From Tubulanus polymorphus (Eukaryota > Animalia > Nemertea), in contig NC_134026.1 in the NCBI RefSeq assembly GCF_964204645.1, forward strand, positions 16,092,150 through 16,156,149: a stretch of DNA of 64,000 nt. Reading direction: 5' to 3'. Shown in pieces: positions 25,510 through 48,711 of this stretch. The position numbers were made by a program, and so were the translations under genes. The notes under the pieces were generated by a model. The model made no database searches and was not told the DNA's origin. It was given only the letters and a program-made list of their open reading frames with translations. The stretch's first letter is position 1. Each line of letters opens with the position of its first letter.

Positions 25510-26038
25510 CTGGAAATAGAAATAAAAATAAACACGTGTATCTTTTTCAGTGAATTCAATTCCACAGCATTTGAATAATATACCTTTCTTTTGATAAAGA
25601 GATTTGAGTGTCCAAGTACACAAATCAAATCAACCTCTTGGTTGCTAAAATGTTTCGTATGATACGGTACCAAAACAATTTCATAGGGTAAAGAACCGTG
25701 TTAAATACATTAGGAAATCAAACACTGAACCAGCAGAATACCAGCGCCGCGCCCGAATCCAATGTCCCAGATAGACTTTGTTTGAAGGGGATTGGGATCC
25801 ACACCCAAAATATGTAATAAGATTAAAATCCACTTTATTCGAATTTAAAAGAAAAGAAATAAAATCTATTCACCCAGAATTAAAATCAAGATCTAGAAGG
25901 TACGACAGTTTGGGATTCTCTCTAGAATTTATCGATGTTGACGATGGCTCCGAGACGCACTTTTCGTAAGTTAAGTTTCGACAACGTCGAGCTTTTCACC
26001 CGTAAACTCTCGAAGTTTTACTGGGAATAGTTTATCCT

Positions 26039-26131
26039 AGTATTAGGAAAATGGCGCTTTCAGGTCAGAGGTCGAGAGGTCGAGACACCACTCATCACCA
26101 CAAGTAATTTGTTTTCCTAATAAATGGGAGA
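26039..26131 (+). repeat. Polinton left terminal inverted repeat (93 bp)
   Basis: Reverse complement of 48619-48711 with 3 mismatches; includes the PolB ATG. Confidence 0.95.
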
Positions 26132-29100
26132 GAGTGAACAATACACAGAACGAATTGATGTTAATGAAAATAAATATTATTGTACATATTGTAAAAAATA
26201 CATTGATAAATCTAAAAAATCACGTCATGAAAAATCTACAAATCAGATGAAAAATGTAATAGATTTTGAAACTCCAGAAAATTCCAATGAAAGAAAAGAA
26301 CGATTAGATGATATGAAAAAAGATGAAAATTAATGTATTGTTTGTAATGAATTTATAGTAAAAAGGAATTATAAAAGACATCTCGAATCACATAAACACA
26401 AACAAAATTTAAATAAAAATGTTTTAGGATCAGAATATTTTTATGATAAACCTCATCAAGTAGAAAAATCAACTTCAAAAACTAAATCCATTTCAAATAA
26501 ACCTTACATGGAAAATGTTAGAAATTATATCGATTCACTAGAAATAATGGATACAATTGAAATTTTAGAAACATTACATAGTAAAATTGGTCATGCAGCC
26601 ATTATATTTAGATTTTTTAAAGGTACAACAATAGAAGATTATAGTAAATTTATTGAAATCATGGAAAAAATACTAGATTTGGTAACAGATGTTGAATATC
26701 CAAAAATTAGTACTTCTGGGAAAGTAAGTTTTTTAAAGTCAGAAGATAAAATGGATTATGATATTCAAACACATTCTGAAGAAATAATTTCAAAAACGCA
26801 AATAAAAGAGAAGTTAGAAAAAATATTTAATGAATTTAAACGACATATTGAAGAAAGATATTTTGAGGGTTCTAGTTTAACATTGATTGAAATTATATTT
26901 TTAGATTTAAATGTTTATAATACAAAAATGATTAAAACATCAAAAAGTAAAACAATGTTTAAAAATGATTCAAACTTTATATCAGAAAAGGATATTAAAG
27001 CATCAAGTTATATCAAATTACCATTTACAACAAAAGCAGTAATAAATATTCAAAATGAAGATAATAAATGTTTTCTATGGTCAATTATTAGTCGCTTACA
27101 CCCAACTCAGGAAAATGTTTATAGAACAACAAATTACCAGGAATATGAAACAAAATATAAAATTGATCAATATCCAGTAACTATAAAAATAATTCCTAAA
27201 ACAGAAAAAGATAATGATTTAAAAATAAATGTATTCGAATTAATACAATTACCAAAGACAAAAGGTGAAAATATTAAAGATTATACATTAAAGCTTTATA
27301 TTTAACAGAATATTATGATGATGAAAAAGTTATAGATTTGTTATATTACAAAAAAGATGAAAATGAACATTATATGTGGTTAAAACAAATTGATTTATTC
27401 TTTAGAACAGAAAGTGATTTCAACAGTCATCATAAAATTTATCTGTGTAGAAAATGTTTATCTAAAGTTAGAACTGAGAATACATTATTAAAACATAAAG
27501 AATTATGTGATAATAAAGATTTTTACATATTAATAATGCCAACAGAAAAAGATTATAAATTGAAATTTACTAATCATAAATTTAAAAATATTGTTCCATT
27601 TGTAATTTATGGGGATTTTGAATCGTTGAATAAAGAATTTACTAATCAAGATAGAAAAGAAATATATAATAAAAAGCAAATTTTTAAATCAATGGATAAA
27701 GGAAATGAAATAAATGAAGATATAATTCAAGATCCACCAATTATAAACACAATTAAAAAAGTTCATCAAAGAGCTGCTGCTTATGGCATTTATATAAAAT
27801 CAAATTATCCTGAATTATATCAAAATCAATATATTCCTTTTAGAGGTGAAGATGTAGTTAATAATTTTTGTAACAAAATAATTGATTTAGAAAGTGATTT
27901 TGCAAAATTATTAAACAAAAATAAAAGAATAGTTATGACAAAAGAAGATGAAATTGATTTTAATTACTCAACTCATTGTTGTTACTGTGAAAAACGTTTT
28001 CATTCATTTGATAAAAAAGTTAGAGATCATGATCATTTAAATTCAAAATATCGTCGAGCTGCTCATGAAGATTGTAATTTACAAGCTAAGAAAGTTAATT
28101 TCGTACCAATATTATTTCATAATTTATCGGGTTATGATACCCATCTATTTATAAAACAGTTATCAGGAAAATTGGGCACAATTAATCAAGAAATAGAAGA
28201 ATATAATGCTATGAATGGTATAAATGTAAGAAAATATGATTTTAAATTATTAGCTAAGACATCTGAAAATTATATTTAATTTCAATTTGATTGCATTAGA
28301 TTTTTAGATTCTTATAGATTTCTAGCAAGTTCATTAGATAATTTAGCAAAAAGTTTAGTTGATAATGATTTTGTAATAACTCGACATTATTACCCAAATG
28401 AACAAGATTTTAAATTATTGAGATATCAAGGCGCAATTCCTTATTCATTTTATAAAACACATGATGATTTTAATGTAACAGAATTATTAAAAGAACAATT
28501 TTATGATCAATTAAAAGAGGAGTATGTGAAAGATGAAGTGTTTAATAGAACATTAAATATTTGGAATCACTTTAAGATAAAAAATCATGGTGAATTACTA
28601 GATTTGTATTTAAAATCAGATGTTATGATATTGGCTGACATATTTGAAAAATTAATAGAAGTTAATTTGAATCATTTTAATGTTGATCCTTGTTATTGTT
28701 ATTCAAGTCCCGGTTTAACCTGGCAATGCGGTTTAAAATATACAAATGTAGAAATAGATTTATTAAAAGAACCAGACATGGTTTTATTATTTGAAAAATC
28801 AATTAGAGGTGGAATTAGTGGTGTTATGGGAGACATTTTAAAGCAAATGATGAATATAAATTAGTATATATTGACGCCAATTATTTATATGGTTGGGCAA
28901 TGATGCAACCTCAACCATACAATAATTTAATATTAGCAGAAGTTGAAAATTATGATAAAACTGATTGGGAAAGCGCAATTGCGAGTTTAAAAGATGAAGC
29001 ACCAATTGGTTATTTCTTTGTAGTTGATTTGGAATATCCTGATAACATAAGATTTAAAACAAGAAACTTACCTTATTGCCCAGAACATTTAACTGTAGAT

Positions 29101-30692
29101 GATAGTTATTTAGGTGAATACCAGAAGAAAACAAAACCGAAAGATCATGTTTTTACAGAAAAATTGATATTAACACAAAATAATAAATATAATTATATTG
29201 TTCATTATAGGATGTTAAAATTTTATTTAAAACAAGGAATGAAATTAAAGAAAGTACATAGATATATTGAATTTAATCAATCGAAGTGGTTAGAAAAATA
29301 TATAGATTTTAATACACAACAGAGAACCATATCAAAAACAGATTTTGAAAAAGATTTCTTCAAATTAATGAATAATAGTTTTTATGGTAAAACATGTGAA
29401 AATATTAGAAATAGAAGTGATATTGAATTAGTAAATAATTCTGAACGATTGAGACATTTACAATCAAATCCTAGACATTTAGGAAATAAAAGATTTGAAG
29501 ATTATTTAACAGCGGTTAAATTAAAAAGAACGTCAATGAAATTTAATAAACCTATATTCATTGGTTCAACTGTTTTAGAAGTATCAAAATTATTAATGTA
29601 TGATTTTTATTATAATGTTTTACAACCACTTTTTGGGGAAAAGCATATTGAAATATTATATTTTGATTCTGTAACAGCTGACACCCCAATATTATTAAAA
29701 TGTAATAATAAAATATTGGTAAGAAGAATTTCAGAAATAATTCCAAAACAAAATGAATGTTATATTTCATATGATGAAAAAGAATTAATACAAATAAATG
29801 AATTAATGGATGTTTGGACAAGAAATGGATGGAAAATATTAAAGAATATTATTAGGCATAAAACAAATAAGAAAATCTATAGAGTTAGAACTAAATTAGG
29901 GTTTGTAGATGTTACAGAAGATCATAGTTTAATTAAACGAAATGGTGATGAAATAAAACCAACTGATATAAAAATTGGAGATGAATTATTACATAAAAGA
30001 TTTTTCCAAAGAATGAATCATATATCATTTGATGAAATAATTGATAATATGTATAATATAGAATCCGAAACATTAGAAGAAAAAGAATATTTTATCAAAG
30101 GATTTTTTTATGGGAGATGGTTCAGCAGGTGTGTATAATTATGTTAGTGGAACTAAATATTCTTGGTATTTATGACTTGAAATTATTAGAAAGAATTAAG
30201 AAATTCGGTGAAGAAGTTTACTCAAATAAAACATTTAGAATCGTGGATCATATGAAATCATCGGCAGTTTATAGAATACTCGTTAATAACCCTAAAGATT
30301 TTGCAATTAAATATAATGATGAATTCTATATTCATGCAATAGTTAAAAGTAATACTTCAACAAAAGAAAAGATAGTTCCAGATTATGTATTAAATGCAAA
30401 AAATAATTTAAGAAAATGGTTCTTCATTGGATTCTATGCTGCAGATGGTTCAAAAAGTTTCAAAAACCACAAAACAATATCTTTAGCTCTAAAAGGAAAA
30501 GTTGCTATATCAGGATTGAATATATTATGTAATTCATTAGGTTTTAATATGAATATTGGATTGATTAAATCTAAACCAAATTGCTTTAATTTAAGCCATG
30601 TAGAAAATGAGTTAACTGAAGAAGATTTATTCGAAATATATAACCCAACAGATTATGTTTATGATTTATCAACTGAAGATGGCACATTATAA
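26124..30692 (+). pseudogene. polB: Protein-primed family B DNA polymerase with N-terminal C2H2 fingers, EndoVII-like insert and an intein; several stops/frameshifts, 3' truncated
   Basis: CTYCKK..H and CIVCNE..HLESHKH fingers, NKCFLWSII, ExoI YGDFES, DHDHLNSKYRRAAHEDCNL, ExoII FHNLSGYD, ExoIII YLKSDVMILADIF, motif A YIDANYLYGWAM (~28861), motif B KLMNNSFYGK, and motif C YFD interrupted at 29667. Confidence 0.93.
29668..30689 (+). mobile_element. Intein with LAGLIDADG homing endonuclease at PolB motif C (pol-c site); C-terminus deleted
   Basis: Block A SVTADTPILL directly after YFD; block B VDVTEDHSLI (TxxH). LAGLIDADG motifs FIKGFFMGDGS (restored by removing one T at ~30105) and FFIGFYAADGS; block F DYVYDLSTEDGT; terminal HN/TDS missing. 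Confidence 0.9.
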
Positions 30693-31485
30693 AACATAAA
30701 ATCAATATCATCAAACTTGAAATCACTATTGGTTTCTTCTTTTTCATTTAATTGTTTTTGTATAATTTGTTTAGGTTCTTCCATTTCATTTTTCTCATTT
30801 AAATAAAGTTCTATCTTGTACCACATTTCATCTCGATGTTTCTAATATCGATGTTTAAAAAATTTACAATCTTATTTAAAAAGAATAAATAATTAATTGA
30901 ATCTGTTATTCTATTATCCACATAATATTTTGATATGTTTGTGAATGTTTCTTTTATATTTTCCATATCTCCTTCTGTTAATTTAGGTTTTTTATAATAA
31001 TCGTTAAATAATAGATATAAATACATTTTCTTTTCTTGTGTGTTAAATGTTGACGGAATAATTGTTTTTATAATATCTTTTTTAGTTATTTCACCATTTT
31101 TATTTTCTATTATTTTCATTTTCTCAAGCCATTGCTTATATTCTGGTGTATGATTTTCCATAGAAAAGATATTAAATATTTCATCTAGATATTTTAATTT
31201 TGGTTCTATAAGAATATCTCTAGTTTTTTCATCATCCCATAAATTCTTTTGCCATCCACATTCATTACAAAATATCACAGGACCTTCTTGAATTAAATAC
31301 CTATAAATACATTGTGGGCAATTTGTTCTATCATAGCTTGGTAATAGATCATCATTGAGCTCTTGGTATTTTCTTACGTTTTCTTTAAGTTTTATTGTTC
31401 TATTATGTAGATTTAAATTTCTTGTTGTAATGATCAATTTACAATATTTACAATAATATGTTATTTTTACTTATTCATTATATTG

Positions 31486-31632
31486 TGTTTCATCTCATCA
31501 ATCGCAGGAATATAATATTAGAGAGAAATATCCAGTAGAACTTCAAAAACGGAGCCAACTATTAGAGTACGGTTTCAGAATATATTCTCCATAACTGTCT
31601 ACACTAAAACACGGACCGCCAACGACGGAACA
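31486..31632 (-). repeat. BEL 3' LTR (147 bp)
   Basis: Adjacent to the PPT; matches 37626-37769. Confidence 0.95.
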
Positions 31633-31969
31633 TCCTCCCCTTCTGAACCCTTATGGGGTTCACAATTAACTAAACTAAACACACAATCTTAATTACCTAA
31701 ATTAAGCTAATGTAAAGAATCTATTATTGGCATCTTAACTAAATTACTAATTAACTAGTGTATTAAATCGTTTCTCGCAAGATCTTCACGACCTTGCAAG
31801 GAGGGCGCTAGGCTCACCTCCACAATCTATCACTAAATAACTGAACGCGTTAAGCGTATATACATGTACAATGTTTCTCCACGAAAGAACGCACGAACTG
31901 TTTTTATAAATTTACGAACTGTTTATGAATTTAAACGCGGTATTACACTACTAGAGTTTATTATACGAA

Positions 31970-34900
31970 TTACACATAGTCTCTGTCACAGTTCAAATGA
32001 CACAGTTTATTCACCGCGCGAACATATTCCTTTCCCCGACATCGTACACGAGCTACACGAACGAGTTCATCCTCTCCGGGATAAACACCGACGACCTTCG
32101 CAAGTGGCCATCGTCCACGAGGATTTTCTTCGTCTTTCAACATGACGATATCGTTCACCTTCAAGTTCTGTCGCACTCGCACCCACTTGGGGAATGTGTT
32201 CAATGGAGTGAGATATTCCGACGACCACCGTCTCCAAACCTTCTTTACCAGACTTTGCACGTACCGCCATCTATTTCTAGGATTGAACGCTACTTCATCT
32301 GTTATGCTTTGTGCCAAATTACCGCCGACTTGGCCGTGTATGAAGTGATTAGGCGTCAACACTTCTTCATCATCAGGGTCATCAGAAACGTACGTCAATG
32401 GTCTTGAGTTTAACAGACCTTCAGTTTCGACGATTGCAGATAGTAATTCTTCATCAGTTAATTTTGCGTTGCCAAGTATCGATTTCACAGCTTTCTTGGC
32501 TTGTTTGATCATAGACTCAAAAACCCCACCATGATGTGGCGCAGCGGGTGGGTTGAACTTCCACTTGATGCCCTGAGAAGCACCCTTCATTTTGATCTCA
32601 TCTTTATCGAGCATCTGCACCAACTGCCTAAGTTCTTTCTCGCCTGCTGTAAAATTCGTTCCGTTGTCACTGGTCATAACGCTAGGTTTTCCTCTCCTAG
32701 CTACCATTCTGGAAAAGGCTAGAAGAAAACCAGCTGTGTCAAGGGAATATGCCATTTCCAGATGGACAGCCCTTGTCGCCATACATGTAAATAGACACAA
32801 GTATCTCTTTGCAGTGCATCGTCTAGTGATCTTCGTTGTAAACGGACCGCCATAATCCACCGCACAAGAAAAGAAACATCGTAGACTGACCAGCAGACGT
32901 GAACGTGGTAGCGGTGCTACTTTCTGATTTATGCCGAGTTCTTTTCTAGTATGACACAGTTTGCAGTTAATTTTGCAACGTTTTACTTCTTCCCGGCCAT
33001 CTATCACCCAATATTTTTGCCGCAGGTCAGCCAAGACTGCATTTGTACCACGGAAATGACCACCGAATCTGTGTCTGTCTTTAACAAGCAGCCTTGTGAT
33101 CTCATTTTTCTTAGGTAAGATTATTGGGAATCTCGTGTCATACGGCAAATCTGCTTTCTCCAACTCTCAAAATCCCTTCTGTATCCAGTATTGGTAATAA
33201 CTGCCTAAGCTGACTTTTCTTAGGCAAATCTTTACCCTTTGTCAACAAAGTAATCTCTTCACCAAATGCCTCCATCTGACAACACTCGAACAAGTTATTC
33301 TCAGCTTTTTCAAGTTCTTCAACTTCCAATACCACTTTATTTGAATCTTTGGGTTCTACCGTTTTTTTGTTTTTCAATATCTTGTAGTATCGAAACACTA
33401 GAGCTACGACTGCTTTCAACTTCGTAAAACTAGTGAATCATCTGACATCAACTACCAATTGTTGCGGCTTCTCAGCCGTAACAGTCTGAAAGACGGACAG
33501 CATCTTGCCAACTTCATTTTCAGCTTCCAGGCTCAGACCTTTACCGAGGGTTTTCTGTGGCCAAGAATTCTCCCCTTCATACAGGAACCTGGGACCACAA
33601 AACCATCTATGCTTCATGGTCATGTCTTCGACTTTCAGTCCCCGTGTCGCATCATCAGCTGGGTTCTGTTGACCGGGAACATGGTTCCATTGAACAGGCT
33701 TGGTAACTTCTTGGATTCTCGACACCCGATTTGCAACAAACGTCTTATACGTCCTGGATTGTCCATGAATCCACTGTATAACGTCCATACTGTCACTCCA
33801 AAATCGGTGCGATTCAACAGGTATATCTAATGCTTTTGCAACTACTTCAGCTAGCTTAACGCCTACTACAGCCGCCATCAGTTCCAATCGTGGCACACTA
33901 GTACACTTCAGCGGTGCTACTTTTGCTTTCGCACCAACCAGAGCAACCTGAACTTCATTATCTTTGAGTTCATATCGAACATATGCACATGATCCATACG
34001 CCAATGTCGAAGCATCAGTGAACACATGTATTTCTGTAGTTTTTACATCATCAGCTGGTCTCGAACGATAACATCTCGGAATCTGTACTGAATCAATGTT
34101 CTCCAACTCAGCCAACCAATTATTGAAACTCTGTTTAATATCATCTGGTAATGCTTGATCCCAAGTAATACCACGTAACCACGTCTCCTGGAACATCATT
34201 TTTCCTCGTATAACAACTGGTGCCAAATACTGCAGTGGATCAAAGAGTGTGGCAATACAACTCAACAGACTACGCTTTGTCGGGACTCCACTCCTACCGC
34301 AACTAGCCGGAGTTGAGTACGTCAAGTAATCTCCCACTGCAAACCATCGTACACCCAAAGTCTTCATATTTGCATTGTCTTTGTCAACTATCTTCAAGCA
34401 ATCCTCAATATCTCCAAGAGGTAAGCCATCTAAAACAGCCATAACATTACTACACCATCGTCTTACATCAAATCCTGCAGCAGATAATACAGATGATAAC
34501 TCGCTTCTTAGAGTGGTCGCATCCACAACATTCTCCACTGATGTAATTAAATCGTCCATATAGGTTTGCTTGTGAATAACTTCAGACACTCTTGGGTTTT
34601 CTTCACTGCAGTTTACATGATGTCTAAAAACAAACTGTGCCAGAAATGGCGAAGCCTTGTCCCCAAACATCAATCTAGTTGCTTCATAAGTTTCAACTGG
34701 CGAGTGTGTATCATCACGCCATAACAATCGATGGTACCTTCGATCATCTTCAAACATTTGGACCTGAGAAAACATCTCCTTAATATCCCCTACCAATGCC
34801 ACCGGTTTTGTTCGGAACATAATCAATATTTCTACTATGTTATTCTGTAGATTAGGGCCATTCATCATAACATCATTCAAACTCATATTTCCAGTTTTGG

Positions 34901-37214
34901 CAGCAGAATCATGTACAATGCGAACTTTTGTTGTTGTCTTATCTTCACGAACGACTGGGAAGTGTGGTAGAAACCAGCTACTATTTTTCTCTAAATCAAC
35001 ATCTGACACTTTCTGCAAATAACCTTTCTCTACGTTCGCCATAAACACATCTCTGTATCGTCGAGCAAGCTCCTCGTCTTTGAAAAACCGTTTTTCCAGC
35101 ATCATCAGGCGTTTACTAGCATCTTCAAAATTATTCGGTAAATACCTCTTCTCCTCTTTCCAGGGAATTTGGACTTCATATCTATCTCCGACTTTTTTAA
35201 TGGAGGTTTCCGCAATCTCCAATGCAGCCTTCTCTTCAGATGTGTACTTTAGGTCATCCTGATCTTGGAATCCAATTAGATCCTGATCCCAGATCTTTCT
35301 CAAGCAATCATCAGTTCTTATATCGAAGGACCTAACTTCAGTTCTATACGCATGAGTTGTCGTAAAACTCTGGTTTTCACTAAATCCATTTGAAACTTTT
35401 CCAATCACTGTCCAGCCCAGTGGGGTTTTCCGGGCCACTGGACCCCCTACATCACCACGACGTTCTTCAATGGCCGCCATCAATTCTGGTTGATCTGCAC
35501 CTATCAACATGTCTACTTCAGTAGACGGTAGTTTTGGAAATTCAATATCCTTCATATGTCCCCAATCAGCCTGGTGTCGCCTCCAATCAATTGGTTTGAT
35601 ACCCTTACACATAGAGTCCATCACCCATGGTTGAAGCAGTACATCAACCTTCCCATCCAAACTTTTCAGTTTCACACTGACTTTTCGACTTTTCAATTCA
35701 CTCGCACCAGCCAGAGTATTCATTGTTATATGGCGTTCTGACTCCCGTTCCAACTCCATAGCAATTGCTACATCATCAGATATATAGCATGAGTCAGATC
35801 CGTCATCCAGGAAGGCGTTGATGATTATTTCTTGATCTCGAGCGCCAACCAATCTAACCGGCACTATTCTCAAAGCTACTCGCCCCGGAGGACATCTACC
35901 TCTTTGATGTGTTGCATGAGGGTTCACCTCCTGAGGGTTCAGCTCTTCATTTGCATTATGTTTAGATTCCTTAGGGTGATGAAGGTGTGTATGGTGTCGC
36001 TTATTATCCTGACAACCTTCAATTCTGCATCCAGAGAATCTGGTTTCTCTACACTGACCACTTCTATGTCCTTTATTTAGACATTTAAAACACAGACCAT
36101 ACATTTTTGCACGTTCCCATCGATCACCTACAGCCATTTTCGTCCAGTTATCACATTCCGTCAACTTGTGGTTCTTTCCGCATATGTAACAACCTTGTTT
36201 TCTCATAAGACCAGTACTGAAAGACCGTCTTTTTTCTCTGGGAATTCTAGTACTAGACCCTTTTGTTTCTTCAGCTTCAAGTAAATATGCTACCTCTTCT
36301 GCCAGCCAATTCGAAAATTCCTGGAGGTCATCCGATTTTCCAGAACTCTTAACATGACGATGAAAGTCCACCAACATTTTTTCTGGTACTTTCTTTTGAA
36401 CTTGAATATATAAGGCACTGTCAGTTTCGAACTCCACTCCACTCCCTTTCAAGGATAATTTGGTGACCATGTCACATAGTCTATCTGAAAATATTTCCAA
36501 TGCCTTATTATTCCCTTCTGTAATTGAGCTTGTTTCCATTAATCTATCTAAGTGCTGTCTAATGAGACGTTTTTCACCACCGAATTTCAGCTCCAATTTC
36601 TTCAAGGCTGCTTCATATTCTGTTTTTGTGTAACCAAGGTTACCAATGATTTTCAATGCTTTCCCCTTTAAACAGTTTTTTAACATCATCATCTTCGTTT
36701 TTGAGGGTAGCTTTGTGTTCCCTACAAAAACATCAAATTGGTTTCGCCAGTCATGGTAGTATTCCTTTTGACCATCGAATGTAGATAATTCTGGTTTTTT
36801 CAAACCCTGAAAAACATTACGTCGTGGTTTATCATCTTCTGCTTCCGTTGAAGTATCGGAATGACGTTTCTCGTCGCTTTCTTCATCTGAGGTCGATTCT
36901 ACTTGTCGATGTGGTCTTCTTGTCTTGTCCTGGCTCTTGTCAATACCTGCCGGCCTTTTTTCTCGCTGTTCTAAAATCTGTTTAAGGTTGAATATAAAGA
37001 GGGACAATTCTTCTAAATATTCATCAGATTCTAACACAAATTTGTTGTACTCCACTTCATCGATCTCCAGAATAATTTCAGATGTCTCAGTATCTAATTC
37101 TGAGATTGCTTTAAATGCATCAGCTAATTCCCCTAATGCCCATCTGCATTTTTGTAATTCCTTCTCATCTAATTTCTTCTGATCTAACAATTTTTCATCA
37201 ATTTTGGACTTCAC
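31970..37214 (-). pseudogene. BEL/Pao gag-pol polyprotein (gag CCHC, protease, RT, RNase H, integrase); one in-frame stop (33440-33438) and one frameshift (~33160)
   Basis: LCFKCLNKGH, AFLDDGSD, TPLGW, YMDD, FTDAS, VPRLEL, HVPGQQNPADDATRG, VDYGGP, SDNGTNF, WPLAKV. Confidence 0.93.
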
Positions 37215-37625
37215 TCTTGTGATTTTTGCTTTGAGTGGTGTCCTTTTTCGTTTTCTAAGTTCAAAATCTCTTCTCTGTTCAGCGTTATGGTCAATTACGA
37301 AATTTTGTATCTTTCTGGTCGGTATATTCCAATCTCGATCGTCTTCTTTCGGTAATTAGCAATCCATCAAATTTTCATCAGCACCCTGCTTTATTTTTCT
37401 CGAAACTGACTTTTTAAGATTAATACTACAAGCACACAATTTTTCGACAGTATTAATTCGTATTCAAGTCAATTCTGCATCAATAGTTAGATTTTTATCA
37501 ATTCTTCGTTTCATCAGAAATTAACACGACGTCGACTCACGTGTTTTCGCTTAAACATCAAATTTTGGTCATCTGTAGTCATCCAATCATCAAATCTTTA
37601 CATCATCCGCCTCCGAGGGACCATA

Positions 37626-37769
37626 TGTTTCATCTCATCAATCGCAGGAATATAATAGAGAGAAATATCCAGTAGAACTTCAAAAACGGAGCCAACTATT
37701 AGAGTACGGTTTCAGAATATATTCTCCATAACTGTCTACACTAAAACACGGACCGCCAACGACGGAACA
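37626..37769 (-). repeat. BEL 5' LTR (144 bp)
   Basis: Adjacent to the PBS; matches 31486-31632. Confidence 0.95.
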
Positions 37770-38338
37770 TATTGTTTATCTAACTTTTCAACTGTTTCTT
37801 TATTATCTGGTAACGTTTTCTCATATTTTATTTTTTCTAATAAACTATTTTTCTTTCATTGAATTCTGTTACAAATTTATTAGAATTTTTATCTATATGT
37901 ACTTTACGAAATTGATGATTCTCCCAATCTTCTATATTTTCAGGGCTATATTTTATTCGACAATGCTCACAGAAATGATCTTTTATATTATCCTTATCAT
38001 AGAATAAGAAAGGTCTTTTCGAAATAATTTCAGGTTCAGTTTCAACAGAATTACTATTACTTTCGTTACTATCAACATTAACCGTTGTGTCATTAATTTT
38101 ACACTTCTCTGAATGTTTTTTTAACATAATTTCTTGAGAATAATTCATTACAATTTGGGCAGTTTAGTTTAGGGGGTTTATAATTTTTATCGTGTTTTTT
38201 TCATATGTCGAGCCATATTACTTTTTCTTAGAAGTTCACCACAAATTTCACATGCTATCTTCTCATCCATTTATTTAGGAAAAATTTTATTGAAATTAAT
38301 TTTTAGTGATGAGCGGTAATTTCTTTATGTTATAAATA

Positions 38339-39095
38339 ATGGTAGAATTAAAAGAATACAGAATATTTGTTGATTCTAGAAAACTTACAAATTACAAATC
38401 ACATAATTTACTAATACAATTAGATAGAGAATTTAAGAATTGTGTAGATTTGAAATTAGTTTAATGTAAATTTATGTAATTCTTTTCATAATATATCGAA
38501 TAAAAGTCTTGATCATTTAGCTTTTGAAATTCATGTTAGAAATTTGAATAAATGGTTTCATCTTTATCTAAAACCAGGATTATATAATTTAGAAACATTA
38601 GCGCAAGAAATAAATAGAAGAGCTCGTTTAAAAATGGGTGCAGCTGCTAGATTTGAAATTAAATTTATTAAAAGTGATAGTTCGAATAAAGTAAGCATAA
38701 AGTTAACTAATGAACAACATAGATTTCTAGTAAGAAAACCTTTAGCTAAACTGTTTGGAATTCTTCCAGATAGAGATTATTCAAGTATCGAAACTTATAC
38801 AAATTTAATGACTTTTACACACTTTTATATTTATTGCAATTTAATTGATCCTACAAAAACATTTGAAGCAACTAAAGATACAATTTGTAATTCTAGTATA
38901 TTAAATATTATACCATTAAAAAATGTTAAACAATTTGGAACACAAATAAATTATAATTTAGCTGAATGTGATTTTAAACCTTGTATTCCACATTTCAATA
39001 ATTTCAAATTAGAAGTAAGAAATCACAATGGATACTTAATTGATTTGAATAACTTTCCTGTAATTTATGAATTAGTTATAAGATGTAAAGAGTAA
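38339..39095 (+). pseudogene. Minor capsid protein (penton), frameshifted near 38462
   Basis: NSFHNI..LKPGLYNLETLAQEIN...FYIYCNLID...LEVRNHNGYLIDLNNFPVIYELVIR matches the Polinton single jelly-roll penton pattern. Confidence 0.75.
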
Positions 39096-39111
39096 TTTTT
39101 TTGATATATAA

Positions 39112-39459
39112 ATGAATATAACTGTTGGACCGAGCATATGTTTTGGATTTAATTTTGAGAAAGAAATGAAATTTAACATTACTGATGTAATAACACATAT
39201 CAAAAATATTGTATTTTCTAATGAAACAACATTTGAGTATGAAAAAACAATAGATAAAGAAACTTTAAATGTAGAAAAGATTACTTATTTAATTAGAGAA
39301 TCTTTAAGATTTTATGAATTAGATGAAGATTTTATTATCGATGATATTAAAAAAATAATAATTGAAATATATACAAATGAAACTAGTAATGAAATAAATG
39401 TTGAAATAATCATCACTAAGATAACTAAATATTTTGAAGATGGTAATTTTTTTGATTAA
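39112..39459 (+). CDS. Polinton hypothetical protein (115 aa, acidic)
   Basis: Intact ORF with TAAATG start, tightly packed with its neighbours. Confidence 0.6.
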   Translation: MNITVGPSICFGFNFEKEMKFNITDVITHIKNIVFSNETTFEYEKTIDKETLNVEKITYLIRESLRFYELDEDFIIDDIKKIIIEIYTNETSNEINVEIIITKITKYFEDGNFFD

Positions 39460-39462
39460 TAA

Positions 39463-39684
39463 ATGAGTGATAATAAGTGGATAATAACTGGATTATATAA
39501 TGGAGCCTTACTATCCGTTGGAACTGTTGGTTATTCAATGGTATTAAAAAAAGTATTTAAAATGGGAAGTGTTAATGTTGATAGATTTGATATAAATGAT
39601 ATTTTAAAATTAACATTAGCAGTTACTTTATCTAATTTAACTATTGATTATTTGGAAAAACAAAAATATATTCCTCCTATATAA
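39463..39684 (+). CDS. Small hydrophobic Polinton protein (73 aa)
   Basis: TAAATG start; two hydrophobic segments; ends DYLEKQKYIPPI. Confidence 0.65.
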   Translation: MSDNKWIITGLYNGALLSVGTVGYSMVLKKVFKMGSVNVDRFDINDILKLTLAVTLSNLTIDYLEKQKYIPPI

Positions 39685-39708
39685 ATGCGTAATTATTTTA
39701 CTAAATAA

Positions 39709-40131
39709 ATGGCATCTGCAATTATAACTATTATAGGATCGGCAATTGTTAACGCTTTAGCATTTACTGGTGGTGGATATTTATTTAAGCATATTGATAA
39801 AAATGGTTCATTATCAGAACAAAAAAGACATAACTTAGCATTAGAAAAATATAATAAAGCTGCAGAAGAATATACAGAAAAAATACAAAACTATATGGAT
39901 TACATCAATAAAGAATTATATGATCAGAAGATTTCACATAGAGATTTTCAATCAGTCGATGATGCAATGAGTTTATATAACGCGGTAACCAATAAAGAAA
40001 AATTACATCTATACAAACCTAAATTATCAGATTATTATACACCAAGTAAAGAACAACAGAAATATGAAATAATTTGGATTTTAGGCGGAACTGTTATTGT
40101 TATATTTGTAGCATATAAATTTACTAATTAG
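39709..40131 (+). CDS. Polinton membrane/coiled-coil protein (140 aa)
   Basis: TAAATG start; N-terminal hydrophobic GSAIVNALAFTGGGYLF, EQKRHNLALEK coiled coil and C-terminal TM segment. Confidence 0.7.
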   Translation: MASAIITIIGSAIVNALAFTGGGYLFKHIDKNGSLSEQKRHNLALEKYNKAAEEYTEKIQNYMDYINKELYDQKISHRDFQSVDDAMSLYNAVTNKEKLHLYKPKLSDYYTPSKEQQKYEIIWILGGTVIVIFVAYKFTN

Positions 40132-40151
40132 TAATTTATTTTGCTAAATAA

Positions 40152-40588
40152 ATGGATGATAAAGTTGATAATATTGATATTATTCCTCATGATATAAATA
40201 AAACTAAATTAAATACATATTTAGAAAACCAAATATTAGAATTTGAAAGTGACTTAAAGATAAAAAAGAAAAAATATTTAAAAAGTAAAATTATATATTA
40301 TCTTATTATCAGTGGTTCAGTTACAATTAGTTCTGTTTATAAAATTTCTAGCAATATTCAGTCCATTAACACCTTTAGCTATATCAATTGGTGTGCTAGG
40401 ATTAAGTTCAAGTGTTTTAACTGGTATAAGTTCAAAATTAAATATAAAAAGTAATAAAAAAAAAAATTAAAACTAATATAAAAGAAATTAATAAATTGAA
40501 GAATACACTAGATTATATAATAAGTTTAAATAGCCATATAACAGTTGAAGAACAAGATAAATTATTAAAAGAATTAATAAATTATTAA
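40152..40588 (+). pseudogene. Polinton coiled-coil/TM protein, frameshifted
   Basis: TAAATG start; the hydrophobic segment continues in an alternate frame after ~40340. Confidence 0.5.
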
Positions 40589-40603
40589 TTTTTTATTATA
40601 TAA

Positions 40604-41880
40604 ATGGCAATTAGTTTTCCAAAAGCTTTTCAATATAATAAATCAATTAAATATAATATTCCAGCAATAGATTTTAATAAAGATATTACATATAGAAATA
40701 AAGTTTTAGATTCATTAACTAATTTAGAAATTTATATTACTGAAACTAATAATTTTAATGGAAAGATGGGAAATATATTTCATGTATATTTAATTAATTT
40801 TAAAAAATTGAAAGATGAAAAACAATGGTTATTAAAATCTAATATGAAGTATTGGCAGAACCAATTAAATTTTGCAGTTTATTGTGCAACAACAGGATGT
40901 GGAATAAGTTTGAATGATCATTTGAATAATTCTAAATATAAATTGATTCAAAGTTTATTTAGATTTCATACATACTTTCAAATAAGATTAATATTAAATG
41001 AATTAGAGACCCCTTTACCAGGATCTAGGTATTTTAAAGAGTTAGATAATAATATAAATTTATCAAAGTTTTTAAAATGTATCAAAATGTTGCAGCATAT
41101 TGTACACTTCCCATACCATCTAATACTTTTTATAATATCTATAATAATAACTTAGGTTATGGTAAAATAGAAACTAAAGATTTAGAAACATTAAATTTCA
41201 ATAAATTACCGAAATTCAATGATAATTTAAAACAAGAAAACAAAAACGGTTGGGTTTATTTTATTTTAGAAAATAGTGAAGGATTTACTAAAGCTGGTAT
41301 ACAAAGAATAAATCAATCAATTAGAACTTATTTGATATGTATTTTAGGTGCGCAAGTTGAAACAAGATCCCCAATAATTGGAAATTTAAATACATCATTT
41401 GATACACAGAAACAATTCAAAGTATTATTTGAAGATTCAATTCATAATGACAAAAATAGATCGATTGCAGAAAACATTGTCAGATATCAAAATTATTTAG
41501 ATAAATCACATATAAGATTAAATTATTGTATAGGCCCTAATCTATTAATTATGTCTAATGATTTAGGATTAAAGATGGGAAACATAATTGGTTACAATAA
41601 TCTGATAAAACTGCAACAATAAATAATTCATTTGGATTAAATGAAATAAATAAAAAGATTATTACTGCTCCAAAACTAATGGAAGGCGAAAAAAATTAAA
41701 AAAAACATATTCAATCAACAGAAACTAAAACTAAGAATATTTAATTAAATAATGATTATAAAATAAAAGATTACAATACTTCACACGGTGATATTCAACA
41801 TGATATAATTAAAACTGATAATGATAATAAATCCCATGAAAATGCTAAATTAGCTATAACTTGTATAGGAATTGTAATCG
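40604..41880 (+). pseudogene. Conserved-looking Polinton protein (YWQNQLNFAVYCATTGCGIS), frameshifted
   Basis: ORFs 40604-41155 and 41077-41622 overlap in different frames; KAGIQRINQSIRTYLICILGAQVETRSPI. Confidence 0.65.
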
Positions 41881-41883
41881 GAA

Positions 41884-43312
41884 ATGACAGAAGGTGTAGA
41901 AGATATTCCAATGGAAGACATGGGAAATAATAATGATGATAATAATGATGATGATAATAATGTTGTAACTAATAATGATAATGATGATGAAACAGCGTTT
42001 AATTCTTATTTAGGAAATAGTGGTTCTAATGCCCCATCAACAGATGAATATGATAGAAGAACTAGATCGAGAATAGATCCTGAAAATGAAAATTCAGATT
42101 TAGTAAGACAAAATTTAGAATATAATGAATATATTCATCATTTCCAACCTGTATGATCTGGATATAATATCAATGATAGAGGTGCTAGACTTTTAGTACA
42201 AGAATTAAAATTTTTAGATGGTGAACTTTATTATCGTTTGAAAGATGATTATTATATTGATATCTCTTATAAAAAACAAAACAAAATATTAGCAGAATCA
42301 ACTTTGCTTGAGTTAGACCTATCTAGAATTAAAAGAATAAGAAATAGTAATGAAAGAGAAACTGTTACCAGCACAGAAATTATTAAAAATGAAAGAGTAT
42401 TTAAACAAAGAATTAACGACTTATTTGAAACAATCAATAATAATTTAGAACCAGAAACAACTTCTGGTAAACTTAAATCAAATAAAGTTCCAATTGAAAA
42501 ACTTTTACCAAATGGATTACTTGATGCAACAGATCAAGAATTAGAAGATTTATATATATTTTCTGATAAAGCAATAAGAGTATATTAGTATAAGACTTGC
42601 ATCTGATAAAATTGCGCATGATAAAAGTATAAGAGATTTTAAAATTAGAACTTTGGAAAAAGATAGAACTGATAAAATTAAAGAAATAGAACACCTAAAA
42701 TTAGATAGAGATAATAAAGTTATTGAAGAAATTGAATTTAAAAAAAGAAATGCATATTTAGGAAAAGACAAAGATTATTTAGAATATAACATAGAATTTC
42801 AGAAAGAATAAATTAAATTATTATTAAAATCATTTGATTATAATATTAATAGATTAAAAGTTATTTTTAAAGATTTGTTGATAAAACCAAATTCTGAAAT
42901 ATCATAGAAAGACAGAATAAAATTATTATTTAAATTAGAAGGTATAACAATTCTTTCAATTCTAACAGCTGTAACTATGGTATTCACAACAATAGGTTTA
43001 GCTATATCAAATTCATTGAAATCTACTCCTACTCCCAATAAACCAGATAAACCCCCGAATGATAATAATTCTATACAAGATAAAGTTAAGGATGGTTTAA
43101 AAATATTAGCAAAATATTTATGGGAACTATCTAAAAAATCTGCTGCAGCTTTACCCGGAGTTATTGCATCAATTGTTGGTTTTATATTGAAATCTGCTTG
43201 GAATATTCTTAACTTTGCTGCTGAACATATTATTTTATTTTTAATTACAGTTGTAAGTGCAATTATTTTTGGATTAGTGAATATGATATCAAAAAATATC
43301 AAGAAAACATAA
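41884..43312 (+). pseudogene. Polinton acidic/coiled-coil protein with C-terminal TM helices, frameshifted
   Basis: Fragments 41884-42156, 42238-42588 and 42977-43312 (KSAAALPGVIASIVGFILK...IILFLITVV). Confidence 0.6.
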
Positions 43313-43362
43313 TAGAAAATAAACATGATTAAAAATAAATAATTAATTTTTTTGTTAAATAA

Positions 43363-44608
43363 ATGAATGGGAGTTATATAAGTCCTTCTGAGAATTCTAG
43401 AATATCTAATGCTATTAAAGCAGAAAGATCACATCATATAATTACTCATAATCCTTCTAATATTAATCCTGATGAAACTTTATATGTTAGAATCCCTAGA
43501 TTAACACAAAATACTTTTTATGTTCCAAATAGTATTTATTAATCAGCTGATATAAAAGTAACCGGTAATAATGATAATTATGTTATTGATAATGTTGGAA
43601 GATATTTGATTAAAAATTTAACTACGAAGATTGGTCCAGAAACGGTTTTCTCATTAGATGATTATAATTTATTTATGCTTTATAAAGATTTATGGTTAAC
43701 AAAAGAAAATAGAAATAATATGATATTTCAAGGGATCCAATCAGAAAACCAAAATAAATTAAGATCAGAAGCTAATAATGCAGTAGTAACTAATGATGTA
43801 GATAATTTGATTAAAAAGATTTATGGAAGCAAATAAAATTCCATTAGACTTTGAATTGATGAATAATAATGCACCTTTATATGAATACGCAATTCAAGAA
43901 GATGTTATATTCGAAATAACATTTGCTCCTGTAAATGAAATTGTATTATATAGCGTTGTTAAAGATATGGGTTATAAATTATCGAATATATGTTTAGAAT
44001 ATGATACAGTAACTGATGAAAATATTGCTAACTCAATTCAAACTCAATACAATCAAGGATTTTCATTATTATATGATTATATTGATAAATTTAAAACTGT
44101 AACTATTAATGCAAATGATGAAATAATTAATGAGAATATTAACTTCCCAAGAAGATCTATTAAAGGTATATTAATATTTTTTACCATTGCAACATATTCT
44201 AATGGCGCAATAAATGTTGATAATTATTATAATCCTGAGATAACAAAAGTAGAAATAACTATCGAAGGAATAGCAAATAAAATATTTTGTCAAGGAATGA
44301 GAATGATAGATCAATGGCCAGAAATTAGAAAACATTTTATGAATGAAAAAGTAAAATCATCTGAAAATTGTAATAGTAATCAAATTGAATATTATACCAG
44401 CAATAAATATGCATTATGGTTAGATTGCAGAACAACTGAAGATAATTTTTTACATGGTTCTGGGAAAAAACTACAGAACACTAAAGATGTAATACAATTA
44501 TTCATGAAAAAGAAGAAAGGAAGCTTAAATTTCAAAATGCACATTTATATTATATCTGACGCGCAATTAAATATTATGAATTCTCAATTAGAAAGTATTC
44601 AATATTAG
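43363..44608 (+). pseudogene. Major capsid protein (double jelly-roll); one stop (~43540) and one frameshift (~43830)
   Basis: MNGSYISPSE..IKAERSHHIITHNPSNINPDETLYVRIPRL..NVGRYLIK..YKLSNICLEYD..NINFPRRSIKGIL..YYNPEITKVEITIEG..KYALWLD.RT.EDNFLHGSG..YIISDAQLNI; ~415 codons. Pattern recognised from invertebrate Polinton MCPs. Confidence 0.8.
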
Positions 44609-44638
44609 AAATATTAAGTTAAAATTAACGATATATAA

Positions 44639-45639
44639 ATGGGTGGTAAAAAACTCCTAATACTAAAGAACATTATTTAAGAAATCTATATTACAACCCT
44701 GAGAGTTCGGTTGCTTATTCTTCTGTAAAAAATATATGGCGCCAAATAAAACAAGATAAATTTGATAAGATAATCCCACAAAATTTTGTTAAATATAAAG
44801 ATATAAATGATTTTATGTTAGAGCAACCAACATATACAACGCATAAAAAAATTGTTAGAAAATATAAAACTCGTAAAACTAAGTTATGTAGATCAACAGT
44901 GGCAAGGAGATTTAATTGATATGAAAAATGTTAAGAAAGATAATGATGATTATTGGTTGATCTTAAACATAATTGATATTTTTAGTCGTTATGTACGGAG
45001 CTTCCCACTTTATAGAAAAGATGCCCAAACATCACATGTTTTAAGAAAATTTCTTTCAGGTGGTAAACTAAAGCCAGAAAAAATTCAATTTGATGATGGA
45101 AAAGAATTTGATAATTCATCTGTTTATGAACTCTTAAATGTTCATAATATTAAATATTTTTCAACAAAATCGGTTAAAAAAGCAGCAGTTGTTGAACGAT
45201 TTAATAGAACATTGAGAACAAGAATATCAAAATATTTCACTATTGGAATGAAACCTATTGATGCTAGAAAACCTGAAATTGTTTGGAATAATTTATATGG
45301 GGCATTTCTTGTAGATGATTTTGGTGAACCTAAATTTAAAGTTGGTCAAAATGTTAGAATTTCTAAATATAAAAAGATATTCGATAAAGGATACGATCGA
45401 AATTTTACTAGGGAAATATACAAAATAAAAAAGGTAATAACAACAAAACCATATGTCTATAAATTAGAAGATTTAGATGGTGAAGAAGTTGATAGGTATT
45501 TTTATGAAGAAGAATTGAGTTTAACTACTGAAAGACTAGAACAAGAATATAAAATTGAAAAAGTATTTAAATAAAAACTGTTAAAAGAAAAAAATATTCT
45601 TTAGTAAAATGGGTTGGATGGCCAGATAAATTTAAGTAA
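44639..45639 (+). pseudogene. Retroviral-type (RVE) integrase with C-terminal chromodomain, frameshifted
   Basis: LYYNPESSVAYSS, QWQGDLIDM, IDIFSRY, IQFDDGKEF, KAAVVERFNRTL, PKFKVGQNVRISK, FYEEEL, YKIEKV...LVKWVGWPDKF. Confidence 0.92.
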
Positions 45640-45667
45640 GTAATCAAGTAAAATTAAAAATATATAA

Positions 45668-46275
45668 ATGAATAAGGAATCATTTATATTTGAACCTCAT
45701 AATATGTTAATTTCTGGCGTAACAAATTGTGGAAAAACTTATTTTATATTAAATTTATTAGAAACTATTTATAAAACTATTTTGATAATATAGTATCATT
45801 TTGTCCAACGTATGAATTTAATCAAACTTATGATAGAAATATTACTAGAAATAATAAATTCATTATATTAGATCCTAAAACAGTTAAAGAAAATTTAGAT
45901 AATTGTATTAAAATAGCAATTGATATTTATAAAGGATCAAATACATTATTCATTATAGATGATTGTGCTTATCTACATGATTCAAAAATTAGAGAGAGTG
46001 AGTTATGCTATTTAGCTTTCTCTGGGAGACATTTTGGGATAACAACATGGGTTTTAAATCAAAAATATAATTCAATTGTTAAAGATTTTAGGGAGAATAT
46101 AAGATTTCTAGTTTTATTTTATAACAAAGATAGAAAATCGATGAAAAATGCACTTGAGGAAAATGATATTATTCCACATGATTTACATAATGAATATATG
46201 GATAAATTGAAAAATAATAAAAGATCAAAATTACTATTTCGATTACAACACCCATTTAAATATGAATTTATTTAA
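45668..46275 (+). pseudogene. A32/FtsK-like genome packaging ATPase (absent from ORF track; 1-nt frameshift at ~45775)
   Basis: Walker A ISGVTNCGKT, Walker B LFIIDDC, SGRHFGITTWVLNQKY, FRENIRFLVLF. Confidence 0.9.
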
Positions 46276-46277
46276 AT

Positions 46278-46450
46278 TCAACTGGCTTGTTAATCTAGTT
46301 GAATTCTAGTTACATTCTAGTTGAATTCTAGTTATTGGTAGTTGGAACAAAATCAACTAGATTTAACAAGAAATAAATAAAAACAACAATATATCAACTA
46401 GCTTGATAATCTAGTTGAATTCTAGTTACATTCTAGTTGAATTCTAGTTG
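46278..46450. repeat. Duplicated ~55-bp block of 11-nt TTCTAGTT(GAA/ACA) units with hairpins, intergenic in the Polinton
   Basis: tcaactrgcttgwtaatctagttgaattctagttacattctagttgaattctagtt at ~46278 and ~46394. Confidence 0.85.
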
Positions 46451-46481
46451 CAACAATACAACTAATTTGTTTGTTATATAA

Positions 46482-47074
46482 ATGGGAGGTGAAAAGAAAA
46501 TAAAATCTAAAAATGGTGATGTTCCACTTGAAAAAACTTTAGATGATTTAGGAATAACAGAAACAAAATTAACTCCAGATGATGGTGCTTTAAATAATGT
46601 TACAACACAAATAATAATTATGAATATTATCTTTATTGCAAACATCAATTAGAAATATTAATAGCGTCTGGAAAATGTAAAAATTTTATCGGTAAAAATT
46701 TAACTTATAATGAATTAGATACAATGAAATCAGATGAAATTATTAGATTATTTAAGATTTATGAAACCGCGAGAACAGCTAGAATTAATGATGCGATATC
46801 AGAAAATGTAGTAAAAGGTTATAGTAAATTATGTAATCATATGCTGCCAATTCAAGATGAAAATAGATTATATGCTGATTTAAAAAATGATTATTTAGTT
46901 ATGACTGAATTAAATAAATGGATTGGATATTTATCATTTCAATTAGGTGGATTTATGACATTATTATCAACTGGAGTTATAACATTTTCAAATATTGAAA
47001 GTAAAAATATTTCTATAATAAATGAACAAGGTGGAAGAAGTGAAGAAAAAACCGAGAAGTCCGAAACAAATTGA
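46482..47074 (+). pseudogene. Polinton hypothetical protein, frameshifted
   Basis: TAAATG start; LIASGKCKNFIGKNLTYNELDTMKSDEIIRLFKIYE...LYADLKNDYLV. Confidence 0.6.
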
Positions 47075-47399
47075 ATGGTCTCGGCAATTAGGAATTAAAT
47101 CACAACAATATAAAAAAGCTGTAAAAGAAAAAATAAGTAATAGAAATGGTGAAAATATTGTTATTTCTACTCCATCTAATAAAAGATTATTTGATAAATA
47201 TCTATATTTTACAGCTGGATTTGTAATTGTATTCATTTTGATTGGGTGTAGTTGGTATAAGAAATCAAATAAAATTCATGATATTAATAATTCCGAAACA
47301 ACTGAAATTAAAATCGAAAATACTTCTGAAATTCCAAAATTGACAATAAAAAAATGGATTAATATTTTAGAAAAAAGCAAAAAAAATAGTTTTTTTTAA
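47022..47399 (+). CDS. Polinton basic protein with one TM helix (125 aa)
   Basis: TAAATG start; KKKPRSPKQIEWSRQLG; TM YLYFTAGFVIVFILIGCSWY. Confidence 0.6.
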   Translation: MNKVEEVKKKPRSPKQIEWSRQLGIKSQQYKKAVKEKISNRNGENIVISTPSNKRLFDKYLYFTAGFVIVFILIGCSWYKKSNKIHDINNSETTEIKIENTSEIPKLTIKKWINILEKSKKNSFF

Positions 47400-48299
47400 A
47401 TTGATTGAATATCACCTTGATATTAAACCTAATTAATAGTTAGTTAAGTTGTTTCTTATTTTGAAGCTTTTACTTGAATATTGTATTACAGTCGTTTCTT
47501 ATTATTAGTTTTTTCTTAAATTGAAAGATGGCAGCACTGGGTGTGATGCTGAAATGAATATTTGAATTTGAATTTGTTAATCAATTACCATGGATAATTT
47601 GATTAAAAATTAGATCATAATTAAGTTAAAAATCCATAATTCATTTATCAGTTTTCATTCTTATATTCTTTTCATTCGGAATAATTTGTAATTTCAAATA
47701 ACGTAAATACCGTTTATATTGACTTTTGAGTGTTTTAGCTAAGTATATAAGGCAATTCATTCCACCACTGGAGTGCCGCCGGGCTTGGCTTGCAGGGGCA
47801 TTTCGAAAATGCACCTTTGTCCACCCTCCGTGGTTCTCCTTCAGTTTCGACTTTCGATCCTCCTTTCGGGGGTAAGGGGTTGATAGGAAATGCATTAGGC
47901 GCCTTTATTGTAATGTGTTTCCTGTCAACCATTGAAGGAGAATTGGTGAGGCGTGGGTCGCAGGGGTGTAATTAGAAATGTTGGGAGATAGGTATCTCGT
48001 GGCTCCTCAAGTCAAGTCGGGTGGTTTTGCTAAAACTTACCTTGAAAACTGAATTCCTTTTAATCACGAGAGAGAATGTATCCTGTGTGTTGTATGTACT
48101 GCGTGCTTATTATATAACTGCTAGCTATCCAATATAACTACAACGTTTGAATTGCAACACCTGTTTGATCGATCATTATTCAAATGAAGTACTCTCTTAT
48201 AATAACATGTAACAGATGTTTGGCTGGCATGATTATAGTTGTTCGTAAAACGACTAAGGTCATATTGGATTCTAGATATTCATTATTTTTATTTTTCAT

Positions 48300-48626
48300 T
48301 TAATCAACAATTTCTAAATCATGATGACCGTCTTCATTTTTTCCATGATAGATTATTTTAAATCCTTCCAAATCTTTTAATTCCTCTGTACTCAATGAAA
48401 CCCATTTATCAGGTAAAAATACTTTAAATTCTCGCGATGTACTAACATTACAGTAGCTTAAATTCGCTGATACTTCCTCTTCATATTTAGTTTTTATCTT
48501 TTCTAATTTCAATATTTTATGTTCGATTTCTTTTGTAACATCAACTAACTTTTTTATTTCAAATTGTTTTTTTGCTGGTTTTATTCTGTTATTTATTGTT
48601 GCTAAGAATGCTTTTCTATCTCCCAT
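48300..48626 (-). CDS. Polinton right-terminal small protein (108 aa), possibly OB-fold/ssDNA-binding
   Basis: Intact ORF whose TAAATG lies in the right TIR; KILKLEKIKTKY...FKVFLPDKW...IIYHG. The fold assignment is a guess. Confidence 0.65.
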   Translation of the reverse strand: MGDRKAFLATINNRIKPAKKQFEIKKLVDVTKEIEHKILKLEKIKTKYEEEVSANLSYCNVSTSREFKVFLPDKWVSLSTEELKDLEGFKIIYHGKNEDGHHDLEIVD

Positions 48627-48711
48627 TTATTAGGAAAAAAAATTACTTGTGGTGATGAGTGGTGTCTCGACCTCTCGACCTCTGATCTGAAAGCACCATT
48701 TTCCTAATACT
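48619..48711 (-). repeat. Polinton right terminal inverted repeat (93 bp)
   Basis: Matches the left TIR; includes the ATG of the 48626-48300 gene. Confidence 0.95.

Follow-up and report, generated by a model that had tools for sequence, protein, structure and literature searches.

A Polinton in a nemertean genome

Which RNA polymerase reads the genes of an animal Polinton? The 64,000-nucleotide stretch analysed here (the window; Tubulanus polymorphus, NC_134026.1, positions 16,092,150 to 16,156,149) holds a Polinton of 22.7 kb at 26039-48711, bounded by terminal inverted repeats (TIRs) and a 6-bp target-site duplication (TSD), and nearly every gene of this element begins with a putative poxvirus-type start signal centred on TAAATG. 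The element is a member of the Polinton/Maverick group (Polintoviricetes): it encodes a DNA polymerase B of the protein-primed type (pPolB), an RVE integrase, a double jelly roll major capsid protein (MCP), a penton and an A32-like packaging ATPase, and its AG...CT ends together with the 6-bp TSD are Polinton/Maverick-type termini. The two TIR copies differ at 3 of 92 positions. A Bel/Pao long terminal repeat (LTR) retrotransposon of 6.3 kb (31486-37769) interrupts the minus-strand gene that starts at 38270; without it the element measures about 16 kb, which leaves no room for RNA polymerase genes. The features are, in order:

26033-26038, no strand: left TSD (6 bp), identical to 48712-48717
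26039-26130, plus: left TIR with AG end; contains the putative TAAATG promoter for pPolB and a core of 20 nt that recurs unchanged in the related locus L004
26124-30689, plus: pPolB, TAAATG start, interrupted by stops and frameshifts and lacking its 3' end (52-85% identity to intact relatives in tblastn)
29671-30689, plus: truncated intein with LAGLIDADG remnant at the pPolB YxD/TDS site (weak Pfam match; 65% to intein-bearing relative P0012)
30811-31485, minus: 3' part of the VLTF3-like gene, zinc ribbon and helical domain (ESM Atlas; 44% to the L004 protein; Foldseek on the L004 domain)
31486-37769, minus: Bel/Pao LTR retrotransposon within the VLTF3-like gene, outside the Polinton proper (5-bp TSD, LTRs about 99% alike)
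37770-38270, minus: frameshifted 5' part of the VLTF3-like gene, with the zinc fingers; TAAATG start, A-rich core (relatives and spacing)
38339-39095, plus: penton/minor capsid protein, broken; TAAAT 3 nt further upstream, core shifted along (profile of five Polinton pentons, E 4e-4)
39112-41880, plus: five small to medium genes (39112, 39463, 39709, 40152, 40604), several with hydrophobic stretches, no function assigned; each with TAAATG and a T-rich core
41884-43312, plus: coiled-coil-like gene, broken; the sole start lacking the motif, start unverified (open reading frame, ORF)
43363-44608, plus: MCP (double jelly roll type), broken; TAAATG start (68-70% to P0122)
44639-45620, plus: RVE integrase, frameshifted; TAAATG start, A-rich core (Pfam and relatives)
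45668-46280, plus: A32-like packaging ATPase, frameshifted; TAAATG start, A-rich core (profile)
46482-47399, plus: two genes (46482, 47022), no function assigned; the orthologues in L006 also begin at TAAATG
48300-48626, minus: 108-aa gene driven from the right TIR; the orthologues in L005 and L007 also begin at TAAATG
48620-48711, minus: right TIR, inverted copy of the left
48712-48717, no strand: right TSD, identical to the left copy

The capsid and integrase assignments draw on relatives as well as on the window. A family profile of the MCP aligns with Polinton-type MCPs (HHalign 92.6%, E 4.5e-7), Capsid_N is found in 6 of 20 relatives, and a sequence search of the PDB gave no match for this protein. 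Capsid queries found no relatives among the viral contigs. The integrase matches Pfam rve at E 5e-4, below the cut-off, and is 54% and 40% identical to those of relatives, of which L003 matches rve at E 2e-14. A profile built from the proteases of six relatives found no capsid maturation protease, an enzyme that most but not all Polintons have, in this decayed copy, and Rfam returned no match. With respect to RNA polymerase, no polymerase family was found among 26 ORFs, nor any NADFDGD-type motif in six frames.

Most core genes carry stops or frameshifts, so the sequenced copy cannot form particles by itself. The same host holds many further copies. In a DNA run bearing the same species label, read depth reaches about 300-500 across most of the element's left part, while the flank has about 10, and the deep coverage comes mostly from reads 85-99% alike, which indicates some 30-45 diverged copies; 94 reads cross the empty retrotransposon site. 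A run presumed to be RNA gave no reads on the left half of the element, which speaks neither for nor against its transcription. The retrotransposon itself appears young, with long open pol frames, near-identical LTRs and a read depth about twice that of the flank.

The start-site signal and its conservation

The first-pass annotation had reported TAAATG at the starts of 13 genes, together with an upstream T-run. All thirteen starts lie where they were placed, with TAAATAATG at the penton (38339) and GAAATG at 41884, giving 13 of 15; as the starts at 26124 and 48626 belong to one TIR sequence, the independent count is 12 of 14. This compares with 37 of the 632 other ATGs in the element (5.9%; binomial p 1.3e-13) or, under a stricter null restricted to the first ATG after a stop, with 37 of 435 (p 1e-11). 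Upstream lies a core, TAA followed by a T-rich or A-rich run, that begins 15-17 nt before TAAAT at all 14 sites (at 16 nt in 11 of them), with T at 10 nt before TAAAT at 10 of 14. The core forms a signal of its own: scored by leaving each out in turn, the cores of 13 starts (41884 and the right TIR copy set aside) exceed those of the 37 internal TAAATG (Mann-Whitney p 3e-6). The penton scored lowest (-10) in this ATG-anchored test because its TAAAT and core both sit 3 nt further from the ATG. The core is thus spaced to TAAAT and not to the ATG, and the joint shift fits a transcription signal.

A-rich cores precede VLTF3, integrase, ATPase and 47022, and T-rich cores the other ten. This distribution was noticed after the fact and weighs less: the core type is preserved in the L004 and L006 orthologues but is mixed for pPolB.

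Could the pattern be a by-product of AT richness, or of starts having been chosen for the motif? We consider this next to impossible. The element is 76% AT (24% GC against 38% in the flanks, bearing out the earlier remark that it is much more AT-rich than its host), and about half of the starts are without a homology check. In pPolB, the gene at 38270, MCP, integrase, 47022 and 48626 the N-termini lie within about 15 codons of relatives' starts, and the other starts are set by ORF position alone. The enrichment over the element's own ATGs, however, is of the order given above, and the controls from other Polintons, where starts were called mechanically, refute the compositional explanation.

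These controls come from 97 loci with a related pPolB. In nine close loci TAAATG stands at 13 of 20 ORF starts, and several of the starts that lack it are ATGs inside cut or frameshifted pPolB. Six of the nine, L004-L008 and L010, form a supported pPolB clade with L017 and the window (98/91 or better), in a tree of 60 rows from which loci with fewer than three ORFs or short matches were mostly left out (the near-identical L006-L008 are counted once). Two loci elsewhere in the tree also use TAAATG, L003 at 7 of 7 starts and L096 at 5 of 11. Among the remaining 86 loci it occurs at 14 of 412 starts, and at 8 of 111 in the 31 that are AT-rich. Because L003 reaches 7 of 7 at 38% GC while the AT-rich others rarely carry it, the signal is no product of base composition; it is lineage-specific and conserved. 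In a further supported pPolB clade (L085, L087, L091) most genes begin with runs resembling TAAAA(A)ATG, which may be a further variant of the initiator.

A second alternative holds that host RNA polymerase II (Pol II) uses other promoters to transcribe the element and that the motif acts in RNA, as an upstream poly(A) signal, in stop-start coupling, as a splice acceptor or as translation context. Of the 15 starts, 8 do overlap an AATAAA and 5 a TATAAA. Yet the motif also stands in both TIRs and before the divergent VLTF3/penton pair, positions that no gene precedes on the strand. As for a splice acceptor, none of the motif-bearing starts has an AG within 20 nt, which speaks against it. Six gene pairs were measured, and in each the stop of the first gene ends 3-50 nt ahead of the next ATG and hence is not the TAA of TAAATG; in these pairs the genes do abut, as had been described. 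Intronless genes, also described there, are supported indirectly by the uninterrupted ORFs of relatives; in this copy the core genes are interrupted by stops and frameshifts. A TATA box at -7 would place the transcription start beyond the ATG. Translation context fares no better: base -3 is T at 12 of 13 starts in the element and in 19 of 22 long ORFs of the TAAATG-type relatives; the other loci favour A at this base and have T in 42 of 196. Taken together, we regard an RNA-level role as improbable. A T at -3 is poor for scanning unless it is absent from the mRNA, and would thus fit an mRNA that begins within the AAA.

Elsewhere in the window, exons of a host glial-cells-missing (GCM) transcription factor lie in the flank at 5148-6881, with the exon for the GCM domain at 5148-5447 (Pfam E 7e-26); this domain is of animal type and marks the host as an animal. 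CpG observed/expected is 0.61 in the element, 0.31 in L005 and 1.10 in the flanks. Between the ATPase gene and that at 46482 lie non-coding repeats with a unit of 11 nt (46278-46449), and in L006 a different array lies upstream of the orthologue. About 900 nt with no clear gene and a GC-richer middle (47400-48300) precede the right-TIR gene.

A VLTF3-like gene and a borrowed polymerase

The gene split by the retrotransposon is orthologous (44%) to a 697-aa protein of L004 that likewise starts at TAAATG. In the ESM Atlas, 29 of 30 matches to the middle domain of the window protein are Pox_VLTF3 (up to 0.94), as are 27 of 30 for that of L004 (0.93). A Foldseek search with an AlphaFold model of the L004 domain placed an unnamed protein at the top (E 9e-5); ranks two to four went to VLTF3 of cowpox and of two entomopoxviruses (E 8e-4 to 2e-3), and other VLTF3 followed. 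The element thus encodes a predicted VLTF3-like late transcription factor of the poxvirus A2 family, whose best named structural matches are poxvirus VLTF3. Homologue searches for VLTF3 returned nothing or the query itself, and a single-sequence model (pLDDT 49) gave no significant fold match; no solved structure matched either. VLTF3 has already been reported in a polintovirus subgroup (PMC11131425). In two other loci, L020 (4313-5134) and L021, a profile of two Megaviricetes-type VLTF3 detects a VLTF3 of that type beside pPolB, with TATA-like starts and no TAAATG.

What kind of promoter does the start signal resemble? Vaccinia late promoters carry TAAAT, which the start codon's G usually follows, and 10 nt upstream they have a conserved T with further T around it, while vaccinia intermediate promoters combine TAAA with an AT-rich stretch 15-19 nt upstream (PMC11980589). 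The vaccinia polymerase itself reads TAAA directly (PMC12917281), and the viral polymerase slips on TAAA to produce 5' poly(A) leaders (PMC6211774). Judged by its sequence, the two-part signal at the gene starts matches the poxvirus intermediate/late promoter.

We propose, with a probability of roughly 60%, that this family of elements relies, in the manner of a virophage, on a large DNA virus infecting the same cell to supply the RNA polymerase. The two-part signal would act as a transcription initiator: RNA would start within the AAA, and slippage would add a 5' poly(A) leader directly before the AUG. The provirus would remain silent until a helper with pox-type post-replicative transcription, either pox-like or another nucleocytovirus, infects the cell; the element's own VLTF3 may then help to draw the helper polymerase to the element promoters, while pPolB, capsid genes and integrase would provide replication, particles and new insertions, as for mavirus. 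The use of a pox-like polymerase, as first suggested, is favoured by the layout of the signal, the spacing tied to TAAAT, the T at -3, the conservation among relatives, the VLTF3-like gene and the lack of an RNA polymerase. "Poxvirus" is too narrow a term, however, since a large virus other than a poxvirus also uses TAAATG (L185, below). The further idea that the element is reactivated on infection and antiviral for its host is not supported by anything seen here.

Several observations weigh against dependence on a helper. The VLTF3-like protein is missed by Pfam and by a profile of two Megaviricetes-type VLTF3, and must therefore be divergent; the model of the L004 domain is mediocre (pLDDT 62), its top Foldseek match is unnamed, and rank order is no phylogeny. 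Among the TAAATG-type loci, VLTF3 adjoins pPolB only in the window and L004, most of the others being too short. Mriyaviruses also have VLTF3 without an RNA polymerase and are thought to use the host nucleus (PMC11253617). The roughly 30-45 germline copies of the element must have reached the nucleus. The 8-mer CTCATCAC, found only upstream of pPolB, the right-TIR gene and VLTF3 (26091, 38313 on the minus strand, 48659 on the minus strand), could be a site for a host factor. Nor are TAAATG starts specific to poxviruses: in a 20-kb stretch of L185, chosen by motif match, they stand at 13 of 23 gene starts, with a TTTAAAA-like upstream run at several genes. This large virus (L185; also L098, L129, L143 and L146, on contigs of 131-263 kb) carries genes for RNase III, NIF phosphatase and TFIIB, a set that we take to be iridovirus-like. 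Finally, a pattern scan of viral contigs (64 loci, one match each) gave no helper candidate tied to the host, and whole-record motif counts in nine records (0-4, with controls similar) gave none either.

The intein in pPolB was considered as a pointer to the helper and dropped, as related inteins occur in algal-virus-like and other large-virus PolB without TAAATG enrichment. Inteins of large-virus PolB sit at this YxD/TDS site too and match it at 39-48% over the N-terminal 107-116 aa. Nearer matches are found in other Polinton pPolB (P0012, 65%; P0090, 50%), and intact close relatives such as L004 have none. Intein invasion of Polinton pPolB has been mentioned (PMC11071308).

Several of these points would suit an autonomous nuclear virus, in which host-type sites would allow host Pol II to transcribe VLTF3 and pPolB at the outset, after which the VLTF3 that the element encodes would steer Pol II to the TAAAT promoters. 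The element carries VLTF3, as do the probably nuclear mriyaviruses, which keep VLTF2/3 without an RNA polymerase (PMC11253617); its copy number in the host is high; and CTCATCAC precedes just those genes that such a scheme would express first, along with the gene in the right TIR. The TIRs (26062-26084, 48673-48690) also hold tandem AGGTCR words that resemble nuclear-receptor half-sites and are conserved in L004, including an identical 20-nt stretch, but these words could equally be origin or integrase sites. Against this scheme, pPolB and VLTF3 sit behind the same TAAATG promoter as the capsid genes, so that the cycle has no plain early gene of host type to begin with, and in vaccinia it is the viral polymerase that reads TAAA (PMC12917281). 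VLTF2, TBP and TFIIB were not recognised in the element, although they were not sought by profiles, and CTCATCA is not preserved in close relatives (CTCATCAC is absent from L004-L008). The many AATAAA, 17-24 per pPolB gene in relatives and 50 along the sense strand of the capsid block (9 kb), would burden Pol II, but this is a test of low power: across 44 pPolB genes AATAAA is not depleted in close relatives (L004, 24 versus 24.5 expected) nor clearly in any lineage, and the test therefore does not discriminate. On balance we hold the autonomous scheme to be possible but doubtful.

Returning to dependence on a helper, a more specific scenario can be sketched, which we offer tentatively and think unlikely to hold in full. 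A lineage of animal Polintons may be obligate satellites of a pox-like virus, as yet undiscovered, that infects marine invertebrates, having taken a poxvirus-type VLTF3 and running a two-step programme on the helper polymerase, with A-rich cores for VLTF3, integrase and ATPase and T-rich cores for most other genes. The germline copies would then be a provirophage reservoir whose promoter tags the helper. In vaccinia, A2L and A32L are intermediate genes, but the capsid homologue D13L is one as well.

That virophages share promoters with their helper is established in protists. What is new, as read from the DNA, is a pox-type start signal on nearly all genes of an animal Polinton, plus a predicted VLTF3-like gene under it; in openly readable main texts we found no description of pox-type promoters throughout an animal Polinton. 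It is an open question whether the Polintons of animals are autonomous or satellites, and a promoter code tied to viral polymerases, together with the element's own late factor, makes it testable. Because the motif is lineage-specific, it suggests that both lifestyles exist among related elements, and it offers a sequence tag with which to sort Polintons by lifestyle and to track down unknown large DNA viruses of invertebrates.

Comparison with known systems

Mriyaviruses resemble the element in having VLTF3 without an RNA polymerase, but they are 35-45 kb long, with VLTF2 and an HUH endonuclease and no pPolB, and their promoters are not discussed in that paper (PMC11253617). The yeast cytoplasmic virus-like elements pGKL1/2 are likewise linear and carry pPolB, with a TAAAN initiator and 5' poly(A) made by slippage; unlike the element, they have their own pox-like polymerase and capping enzyme, no capsid and no integration (PMC6211774).

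Among animal elements, Maverick/Polintons, including the VLTF3-bearing coral polintoviruses, share pPolB, RVE integrase, ATPase, capsid genes, TIRs and the 6-bp TSD (PMC11131425). The element differs in that no protease was detected in it, and most other pPolB loci lack the pox-type start (the 14 of 412 given above). Polinton-like viruses have also been described from entomopoxvirus occlusion bodies, in a paper whose main text does not contain the words promoter, motif, transcription or VLTF (PMC11296320). These entomopoxvirus-associated AHEV_PLV1/2 and CBEV_PLV1 are, similarly, animal viruses proposed to parasitise poxviruses; compared by their description only, they differ in being about 12 kb long, with a protease and no RVE integrase (PMC11296320).

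The likeness to vaccinia intermediate and late promoters lies in the TAAAT overlapping the ATG, the T-rich run centred about 10 nt upstream and the A-rich variant 15-19 nt upstream (PMC11980589, PMC5294985, PMC12917281). Here, in contrast, the signal is known from sequence and belongs to an integrating 16-kb element without an RNA polymerase, and where vaccinia E9L is an early gene, the DNA polymerase of the element, and its integrase as well, use the late-type signal.

Finally, the virophages mavirus and Sputnik place a single late-type motif before all or most genes, replication genes included, and in mavirus, where every gene carries the late promoter of Cafeteria roenbergensis virus (CroV), pPolB, RVE integrase and host integration are shared with the element as well (PMC6723459). 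Their motif is TCTA or that of mimivirus and the element's is TAAATG, and the element further differs from both in its animal host, its capsid protein that aligns with Polinton-type MCPs and its own VLTF3-like gene.

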